Source: Lama guanicoe (lineage: Eukaryota). From it: a DNA stretch of 64,000 nt. The position numbers and the translations under genes are program-made. This document shows, piece after piece, positions 4,001 to 7,000 of the stretch. Location: positions 1,242,001-1,306,000 of the forward strand of contig MU053216.1 in the NCBI GenBank assembly GCA_013239625.1, read 5' to 3'. Each line of letters begins with the position of its first letter. Positions within the stretch are counted from its first letter, which is position 1. The notes under the pieces were generated by a model that saw nothing but the letters and a program-made list of their open reading frames with translations, was not told the DNA's origin and ran no database searches.

Positions 4001-7000
4001 GTCCCTAGCCCCGGAATCTCCATCCTCCCCCCTTCTCCCTTCTCCCCCATCTGCTCGCCCCACCGCAGGGAGTTCACCAAGGAACGGGAGAAGGCCAAGT
4101 CCAGGGGAACCTTCCAGAAGCTGCGGGAGAAGCAGCAGCTGGAGGAGGACCTCCGGGGCTACCTGAGCTGGATCACGCAGGGCGAGGTCATGGACGTGGA
4201 CGACTTGAAAGAAGGTTGGGGCTGGGACCCCCCCCCCAGTGAGACACCTCCCCACCCAAGCCCCCGCAGCCCAGGGAGGGGCACATCGCCACTGTGCAGA
4301 CAAGAAAAACCCCCGCCCTTAGAGGCTAAGCCTCGCACCAGGGGATGGAGGCAGCCTGGCTGTCCAGGGCCCTCCCGGCGCAGGAAGCAGCGGAGTACCG
4401 GGCTGCCCTTGGTAGCCCGGCCTCCCTGCAGACGCGGGCTCTGGAAGGCACAGAGGGAGGGGTCCAGGCCCACCCAGGGCCACTGTCACAGGTGTCCTCA
4501 GTCGGTGGGCCTTTCTGGGTGTGTCCACACTGAGAGGTCTAGAAGCCTGGCCAACTGTACCTCTCTGTCCCCAGGGAAGCTGGCTTTGGATGAAGGCGGC
4601 TCAGACACGGAGAGCTTGTACGAAATCGCGGGCTTGAACAAAATCATCCAGTTTGTGTGAGTGTCTGCCCAGCTTCACGTCCTCCCAGCCCCAGCATCCT
4701 GAGACATGCAGGGAGAGCCCAGTCCTCTTCCCCTGGGTGGCTTTTGGGTCACTTCCCCAATCTCTTAGCATAATCACAGGGCACTCAGTAGCCGACCTAT
4801 TTACATACCATGTAGGGAAGAAAGCTGGGGGAGGCGTGTAGGTAATGAGAACCTCTGCTCCAGGAGGAAGCGGGGAGGCGGGAGCATTGCAGGCAGGGGG
4901 CTGGAGACAGGGATGCTGGAAGCTCTGGCGCCTTTGTCTCAAGAGGACCGTGTGTTCATCCAGCTGGCTGCTGCCTTTACAAATTCATACATAACTGTGA
5001 TTTCGAAAGACACAACAATAGAGAAAAACACCGAGGAAAAGAGAAAGGTCCTCACTGCCTTCGAAGAGGTAACCATGGTGACAGTTAGCTCTGCATCGCT
5101 CCCAGGCCCCTCCAGTCTTTCATCTCTCTTACACGCACACGCACACGCTCGCACACACATACACTCCCACCCAGGTTGCTTTTTTGTTTTCTCTTTGTAC
5201 GTGACGCGGTTTCTCATGTTAACCACCGTCACTGCAGAGCCAACCACGGCACCTGACACATAGGAGGGGTTTTGGGTGAATGACTACGACACACATGCAA
5301 ACTAGCCACTGATATTTTTAACGTAAAATTGTCTCCGAAGGGCGACTTTATACACACACACCTTTTTTTTCCTGAAGACTTCCCTTTTTCCAGAGCAGTT
5401 TCAGGTTCACGGCAAAATTGTTCAGAAAGTACAGAGATCTCCCGTGTACCCCCTGCCCCCCACGTGCACAGCCACCCCAGGATCAGCAGCCCCACCAGAT
5501 GGACCACTTGTTACGACAGATGAACCCACACTGACACAGCGTCCTCCCCCGGTGTCCACGCCTCGTCAGTCTCTCTCTGGGCAAATTATGACAATCACAG
5601 AGGCTGTACATACATACAGATTACCAGTCATTGAGGACCCCGTACATCCAAGTTCTACTCCAGAAACAGCAGACTTTCACCAACCACTTGCTACACGTAT
5701 GCTATCTGTAAGGTCCTACGTGTCGTGGGTTCAGACAAATGTGTAACGGCACGCACCTACTGTCCTAGCACCCGGAGAATTTTCACGGCCCTAAAACCCT
5801 CGCTCTGCCTGCTCACCCCCGCCTCCCACCCCAGCAGCCAGCCACTGCCTTCCTGCTGTCTCCACAGTCTTGCCTTTTGCAGAACGTCATTTAGTCGGAC
5901 TTACTCGTGTGCGGCCGTCTCAGAGTGGCCTCTTCCACTCAGTGACGTGCATTTAAGATTCCTCCACATCTTTGTGCGGCGTGATCGCTCACACACCTTT
6001 GGTATATCTTTGGACGTAAAATATTCCGCCGCATGAATATGGCACAGTCTGTTTAATCTTTCCAGTTTAGGGCAATACAAACAGCGCTTCAGGGAACAGC
6101 TGTGCATAAGTGTGAGTGAGCATCTCTGCCGGGCAGATCCCTAGAAATGAGCTTGCTGGGTCAAGGGTACGCGGATTCTAAACTTCGGTAAACGCTGCGC
6201 AGAGGTCGCGCTGACAGAGAAGGCGCCCTTTCTGCACTGCCTCCCCAACACCAGATGTTATCAGTTTGTCAAAGAACTGCCTTTATGATGGGCAAAACGG
6301 GGCCTCCCAGTGTGGCTTTAATTACGATCGAAATGTATGGGGCCCCACTCTGTGCCCGGCCTGGGGGAGGGGTGGGTGGTCAGACTACCCTTGGCCGGAG
6401 CTGGTCTGAGAGCGGCCTCGGGAAGGTGGGGACTCGGCGTAACGCAGCCTCGGCCTCCGGCCTCCCGGCCTGTCCTCAGCCGTCACTGGAGGCAGTGGAA
6501 CCGCATCTTCCGCTGGAAGTGCCATGACGTGGTGAAGTCCAGGGTCTTCTACTGGCTGGTCATCCTGATCGTTGCCCTCAACACCCTGTCCATCGCCTCC
6601 GAGCACCACCACCAGCCTCTCTGGTTGACCCACTTGCAAGGTGAGCTGCGTGGCTGACGGCCCAGGCGGCCGTCGGGCCTCAGGTTTTGCAGAAGAGGGT
6701 GGTTAGATGTTGACACTGTTTTCTAGAAGCCACAGGAAGGTGGACTTTCCTTCTCATGGCATCACCGGGGACAATGACCACCAGGAGTCTGGGCAAATTA
6801 TGACAATCACAGAGGCTGTACATACATACAGATTACCAGTCATTGAGGACCCCGTACATCCAAGTTCTACTCCAGAAACAGCAGACTTTCACCAACCACT
6901 TGCTACACGTATGCTATCTGTAAGGCCCACAAACCGATCTCAGGCTGCACGGTCAGGGAAGGCACTGCTCTTGCCTTCAGGGGCTTCCTTCACAGACAGA

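Follow-up and report, generated by a model that had tools for sequence, protein, structure and literature searches.

A Perfect 138-bp Direct Repeat Bracketing a CACNA1S Exon, a Possible Scar of Local Templated Insertion

Introduction

One exon of CACNA1S, which encodes Cav1.1 alpha-1S, lies between two identical sequences of 138 bp placed in the introns on either side of it. This arrangement raises the questions of whether both copies are really present in the animal, how the same stretch came to stand twice within 1.2 kb, and whether its presence matters for the gene. The window referred to below is the whole stretch of DNA that was analysed (64 kb), and all positions are given within it. Among the literature matches listed for an insertion in camelid introns of CACNA1S, no paper names this gene.

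Results

The Repeat Pair and the Exon Between Its Copies

The features of the locus, in order along the window, are as follows.

5576..5713, plus strand: copy 1, the first occurrence of the 138-bp unit, located in the upstream intron and within a CpG-rich remnant of an old repeat; probably the derived copy
5714..6479, no strand assigned: first part of the spacer, intron sequence with an unusually high observed/expected (o/e) CpG ratio
6480..6640, plus strand: CACNA1S (Cav1.1 alpha-1S) exon of 161 nt, with a CAG acceptor, a GTGAGC donor and a peptide match
6641..6787, plus strand: second part of the spacer, the initial 147 nt of the downstream intron, from the exon donor to copy 2
6788..6925, plus strand: copy 2, the second occurrence of the 138-bp unit, which lies 147 nt 3′ of the exon donor; probably the template copy

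The initial annotation had described a perfect direct repeat of 138 bp with an offset of 1212 bp and a spacer of 1074 bp, and both direct reading and a repeat search bear this out, the copies being identical at 138/138 positions, on the plus strand in both cases, with starts 1212 bp apart and 1074 bp between them. When the 138-mer was used as a search pattern with up to three mismatches allowed, exactly two matches were returned from the 64-kb window, both perfect, both on the plus strand and both at these positions (5576–5713 and 6788–6925), with 0.00 matches expected from 100 dinucleotide-preserving shuffles. No weaker relatives of the unit were found in the window, either by blastn with a word size of 7, for which the next matches were of 14–28 nt with E ≥ 2.9, or by nhmmer at E ≤ 10. 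The flanks of the copies likewise have no relatives within the window by blastn or nhmmer, and the spacer occurs only once there. Exact dispersed repeats of at least 25 nt in the 64 kb are limited to this pair and a short one within a minisatellite, the only other direct-repeat families of at least 60 nt are two tandem arrays, and no inverted exact 25-mers were detected in the window.

The identity between the copies stops sharply at both borders, with the adjacent base being C beside one copy and G beside the other on the 5′ side, and T and C, respectively, on the 3′ side. Comparison of the 40-nt flanks of the two copies gave 8/40 matching positions on the left and 6/40 on the right, which is the level of chance. 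This abrupt loss of homology at both borders, with nothing shared beyond the 138 bp, rules out that a larger block was duplicated, whether in tandem or segmentally.

The identification of the bracketed sequence as a 161-nt exon of CACNA1S, made at first from the letters alone, agrees with its length, its splice sites, its translation and its matches to known structures. The exon peptide matches Cav1.1 alpha-1S structures (6byo_A, E = 4e-33; 5gjv_A, residues 413–464, E = 1.7e-32), and the exon encodes residues ~412–465 in rabbit numbering, at the start of repeat II, S1. A degenerate pattern of the exon found 0 loci in metagenome contigs and 0 in prokaryote contigs. If the 138-bp copies underwent homologous recombination or single-strand annealing with each other, 1212 bp containing the exon could be lost, and as 161 is not divisible by three, the loss of the exon shifts the reading frame; the earlier statement that such an event would lead to exon loss with a frameshift thus follows arithmetically from the exon length. 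The rate of deletion between repeats as short as 138 bp should, however, be low.

Probable Presence of Both Copies in the Animal

A run index queried with positions 5400–7100 returned 24 public sequencing runs, 20 of which contain 0.87–0.97 of the 174 31-mers sampled. These 20 runs belong to seven studies and carry five organism labels, and one of them may be the source sample. The shares can be read against ceilings computed from the geometry of the stretch, on the assumption of even word sampling, which place the expected share at 0.80 if the unit is absent, at 0.928 if it is present only elsewhere, and at 0.964 if one copy is missing. All 20 runs lie above the first of these ceilings, and 12 of the 20 (X1–X12; labels A–E, studies P1–P5) have shares of at least 0.93, at or above the second. 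The 138-bp sequence is therefore natural, occupying at least one of its two places in every label.

The third ceiling separates one copy from two less clearly. The highest share, 0.97, belongs to a run that may be the source sample; this run is the only one above 0.964, by about one word, and the shares are therefore compatible with one copy as well as with two. Four runs of three labels stand at 0.96–0.97, and other runs of the same labels lose 0.01–0.04 to ordinary differences. Since a model with a single copy would allow these four runs hardly any of the usual SNP differences, the shares lean slightly towards the existence of both copies.

These figures bear most directly on an assembly artefact, in which one copy would be absent from the animal and would have been added by gap filling, by polishing or by the misplacement of a repeat-like contig of read length. 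Such an error would suit a unit of 138 bp, a size close to that of a short read or a small de Bruijn contig, and a run of 73 Ns at 23459–23531, inside a minisatellite, could be a scaffold gap of estimated size. In the possible source run, at 0.97, the missing words number about five, close to the cost of two lost junctions (about six words). The four runs lying at about the one-copy-missing ceiling argue in the other direction, as does the lack of any other exact dispersed duplicate of at least 25 nt in the 64 kb, which means that nothing systematic is visible. An artefact is accordingly considered unlikely, and both copies are taken as probably present in the animal.

The same runs address the suggestion, made when the locus was first described, that the arrangement resembles a floxed exon. 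An engineered allele, with recombinase or homology sites set around the exon, would account for the layout, identical direct repeats in both introns flanking an exon whose loss shifts the frame, and it is in the layout only that the likeness holds. The unit has no inverted arms of recombinase type (longest 7 nt), a blastn search of the 138-mer against plasmids and phages gave no match even at E ≤ 1, and the sequence occurs naturally in 20 runs from seven studies under five organism labels. Engineering is effectively excluded.

Composition and Anatomy of the Repeated Unit

The unit contains 44 A, 37 C, 24 G and 33 T, being A-rich and G-poor, with a GC content of 44.2% and a CpG o/e of 0.31. It had been described as about 44% GC within a GC-rich locus, in agreement with the measured value and with a GC content of 0.60 for the locus overall. 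The GC content of the unit (0.442) is below that of the flanks at both sites (0.58–0.61; binomial P = 2e-4 against 59.5%), although windows of 138 nt that are as low in GC as the unit make up 5.1% of all those in the window. Low-GC islands at 5568–5723 and 6785–6934 coincide exactly with the two copies. That the unit is lower in GC than its surroundings at both sites hints that it may be foreign at both. The same observation counts against a simple account in which the unit is native at the site of copy 2.

The hallmarks of a mobile element, which the initial annotation had already reported as missing (poly-A, TIRs, TG..CA ends and TSDs), were not found. There is no TSD beside copy 1, beside copy 2 or at the outer ends of the composite, the longest word common to the flanks being 4 nt, with none at both junctions; there is no TIR (8/30 between the ends of the unit); no poly-A, with a longest A run of three in the unit; and no TG..CA ends on the 138 bp. 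Folded as single-stranded DNA, the unit reaches −7.2 kcal/mol (z = +1.23), a value equalled or bettered by 182 of 200 shuffles, and its longest internal inverted repeat is of 7 nt with arms 82 nt apart. This fold, no better than that of shuffled sequence, and the short inverted repeat mean that the unit has neither a MITE-like architecture nor that of a recombinase site. A transposable element (SINE, LINE, LTR, DNA transposon or MITE) was considered and judged unlikely, in view of the lack of a TSD or characteristic termini and of structure, with two copies in the 64-kb window.

The plus-strand frame of the unit is open across all 46 codons, which looks like chance. It matched no Pfam family at E ≤ 10, and of the three longer proteins that share words with it, none scored E ≤ 1. 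One minus-strand frame, which is open if read with the vertebrate mitochondrial code (code 2) but not otherwise, gave no Pfam families either. A GTAAGG at the end of copy 2 is a candidate cryptic donor. The A-rich, G-poor make-up of the unit prompted the idea of a NUMT, for which the protein-family searches cover a coding origin only. No Rfam match was obtained at E ≤ 1 over 5300–7200.

The composition of the unit speaks for a third locus as its source, either as a distant template used twice in one complex repair or through a young repeat or mobile family, as yet unrecognised and present many times over in this lineage. Both a unit that is compositionally foreign at its two sites (GC 0.44 against 0.58–0.61) and low-GC islands that match the copies exactly would be expected from this account. 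For a dispersed family, however, it would be very unlikely to find two members in the same orientation 1.2 kb apart and none elsewhere in 64 kb; TSD, TIR, poly-A and structure are all missing from the unit, and the one open reading frame that it contains matches no protein. A 22-mer of the unit also found no copy in viral, metagenome or prokaryote contigs (0 loci in each), collections that hardly sample mammals. A source at a third locus is thus given only a minor share of the probability.

Surroundings of the Copies and Probable Direction of Copying

The two copies lie in different surroundings. The 150-nt flanks of copy 1 have a GC content of 0.61 and CpG o/e values of 0.57 and 0.67, and in the ~1 kb around copy 1 (5076–6213, without the unit) the CpG o/e is 0.77. 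Windows of 300 bp from 4951 to 6450 mostly have values of 0.7–0.8, with 0.70–0.79 from 5701 to 6450, for which the reference is the median of 0.37 and the 95th percentile of 0.646 for 500-bp windows across the window. The flanks of copy 2 have CpG o/e values of 0.50 on the left (147 nt) and 0.31 on the right (77 nt). As the CpG o/e of the unit (0.31) is nearer to the surroundings of copy 2 (0.31–0.50) than to those of copy 1 (0.57–0.77), copy 2 is probably the source and copy 1 the insertion, as judged from base composition.

The initial annotation had taken copy 1 to split an old L1M fragment, and the sequences on either side of copy 1 may be neighbouring segments of a single old L1 3′ end in minus orientation, which would likewise mark copy 1 as the insertion. 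The three minus-strand frames of 5901–6257 gave no L1 proteins in PDB or Pfam, and the matches that they did give were by chance only, namely a Gag zinc knuckle (E = 0.0044), driven by cysteines, and HEV_ORF1 (E = 0.72). As a matter of speculation, breaks might form readily in the CpG-rich zone around copy 1, if this zone is hypomethylated or active in recombination.

Age of the Duplication

With zero differences in 138 bp, the age of the duplication was modelled as P(0) = exp(−2·mu·T·138), with mu set at an assumed 1.0e-9 or 2.2e-9 substitutions per site per year. The median compatible age is 2.5 My at the slower rate and 1.1 My at the faster, with 95% upper bounds of 10.9 My and 4.9 My, respectively. 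A very recent origin had been proposed for the pair, and whilst the copies are indeed young in comparison with the decayed repeats around them, this wording overstates the case, as 0/138 differences allow an age of up to ~4.9–10.9 My. The shares of 31-mers imply that the relatives represented by the runs diverge by at most about 0.1–0.45% over 5400–7100. The duplication may be older than the divergence of the close relatives among the runs, and the scar is probably common to those close relatives whose runs contain the sequence.

Gene conversion could push the age beyond ~5–11 My, and an older duplication may have been held identical in this way in a recombination-active, GC-rich locus. The overall GC content of the locus (0.60) would suit this account, and the remnant beside copy 1, with a CpG o/e of 0.7–0.8 that falls in the top 5% of the window, fits a hot zone of recombination or hypomethylation. 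The unit itself, however, is at 0.44 GC, without the enrichment expected from long GC-biased conversion, and a tract of 138 bp is short for efficient conversion. We therefore consider the maintenance of an older pair by gene conversion to be very improbable.

Discussion

Proposed Origin of the Pair

The list of origins first put forward for the repeat, a templated insertion, an unknown mobile unit or an artefact, proved to be the right one and has been narrowed, with all three still standing. The reading favoured here, with about even confidence, is that the pair is a local DNA-templated insertional duplication, now an inert mutational scar. In the event proposed, a break or a stalled fork would have occurred in the upstream intron at the site of copy 1, and synthesis would have switched to a template 1.2 kb downstream (6788–6925), copied 138 nt once in the same orientation, and returned, in a manner similar to FoSTeS/MMBIR. 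Alternatively, the copied patch may have been ligated into the break by end joining. Either route would leave no TSD and at most 0–2 nt of junction microhomology, with the inert scar at 5576–5713, and the event would fall within roughly the last 5–11 My.

The sharp borders, the lack of a TSD and a possible microhomology of no more than 0–2 nt fit both template switching and the end joining of a patch. At each end, the first base beyond the repeat is not the same in the two copies, and any microhomology would fall inside the repeat.

Significance for the Gene and for the Assembly

The sole foreseeable effect of the copies is to provide a substrate, and a weak one, for a deletion of 1212 bp that would include the 161-nt exon. 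Loss of CACNA1S is severe, with muscular dysgenesis in mice, and given this severity a rare deletion allele would be of interest in breeding populations. A stronger reading can also be formulated, in which the 138-mer would be a young, undescribed mobile or break-seeking unit of this lineage, inserting with no TSD, terminal repeats or tail and able to land twice in one gene, or in which the pair would be a segregating exon-deletion cassette giving CACNA1S nulls at a measurable rate. This is highly unlikely.

If the pair is real, it represents a clean and datable local templated insertion in a mammalian gene, which could be scored as present or absent in close relatives and studied as an example of repair next to an intronic zone rich in CpG, as well as a 138-bp direct-repeat substrate whose recombination deletes a 161-nt exon of Cav1.1. 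If it is instead an artefact, a local error has been flagged in a public assembly. Neither a real pair nor an artefact alters what is understood of the mechanisms.

Comparison With Known Systems

Templated insertions are described as arising via template switching at microhomology in PMC8421209, and template switching also appears as a source of such insertions in PMC7954356. Templated insertions of the FoSTeS/MMBIR type resemble the pair in consisting of a stretch identical to a nearby template, with no TSD or transposon ends and with a sharp loss of homology. The events listed in PMC8421209 are short, from 10 bp up to the length of a read, are inverted and have a template within 100 bp, whereas the repeat here is direct, of 138 bp, and 1.2 kb from its likely template.

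In class 2 templated sequence insertion polymorphisms (TSIPs), as described in PMC5110952, both a TSD and a poly-A signal or tail are lacking, and in this respect they are like the pair. The same paper ascribes to them junctions of end-joining type, and they are read as a DNA “patch” that mends a germ-line double-strand break. Their templates, however, are given there as distant and thought to be RNA-mediated, whereas the likely template of the pair is 1.2 kb away in the same gene.

What the pair has in common with SINEs, MITEs and solo LTRs is that a short unit recurs in identical form, but it differs from them in having no TSD, TIR, poly-A, TG..CA ends or RNA-gene head of the Rfam type, and in comprising two adjacent copies in 64 kb. 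The likeness to a loxP-flanked (floxed) exon is again one of arrangement, with identical direct repeats in both introns between which recombination would delete the exon; the deletion here, however, would need the homology-directed pathways of the cell itself, acting on only 138 bp.

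Sequence composition around the two repeat copies

The CACNA1S exon of 161 nt lies between two identical copies of a 138-bp direct repeat unit. The features of this region are:

4951-6450, CpG-rich intronic zone around copy 1, upstream of the exon
5327-5746 (+), stop-free stretch of 139 codons through copy 1
5576-5713 (+), copy 1 of the unit
6480-6640 (+), CACNA1S exon
6788-6925 (+), copy 2 of the unit
~7003-7500 (+), AT-rich, L1-like stretch

The intronic zone is CpG-island-like: at a GC content of ~50-55%, its observed/expected CpG ratio of 0.7-0.8 falls among the highest 5% of values across the window (95th percentile 0.646; median 0.37). 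Judged by eye, the zone is presumably an old L1 remnant; a site of hypomethylation or active recombination may lie here.

The plus-strand frame that is open in the unit continues into both flanks of copy 1. As no protein family was matched by the unit's 46 codons in this frame or by three minus-strand frames within 5901-6257, the 139-codon open stretch is taken as chance.

Downstream, the AT-rich stretch (GC 0.34-0.41) begins 55-80 nt past copy 2, which lies outside of it. By eye, this stretch looks like the 3' end of a younger, 5'-truncated L1 with an A-rich tail, and an apparent imperfect duplication, GCTTCCTT (~6984-7003) and GACAGACA (~7508-7536), flanks it.

Minisatellite and tandem arrays

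A run of 73 N (23459-23531) is located within a GC-rich, intronic minisatellite (repeat unit ~31 nt) that follows a coding exon; this run represents either an assembly gap of estimated size or a withheld piece of sequence. The window also holds two long tandem arrays:

17919-18512, periods of 9/12/15 nt, 33 registers reported
57533-57881, periods of 8/12 nt, 28 registers
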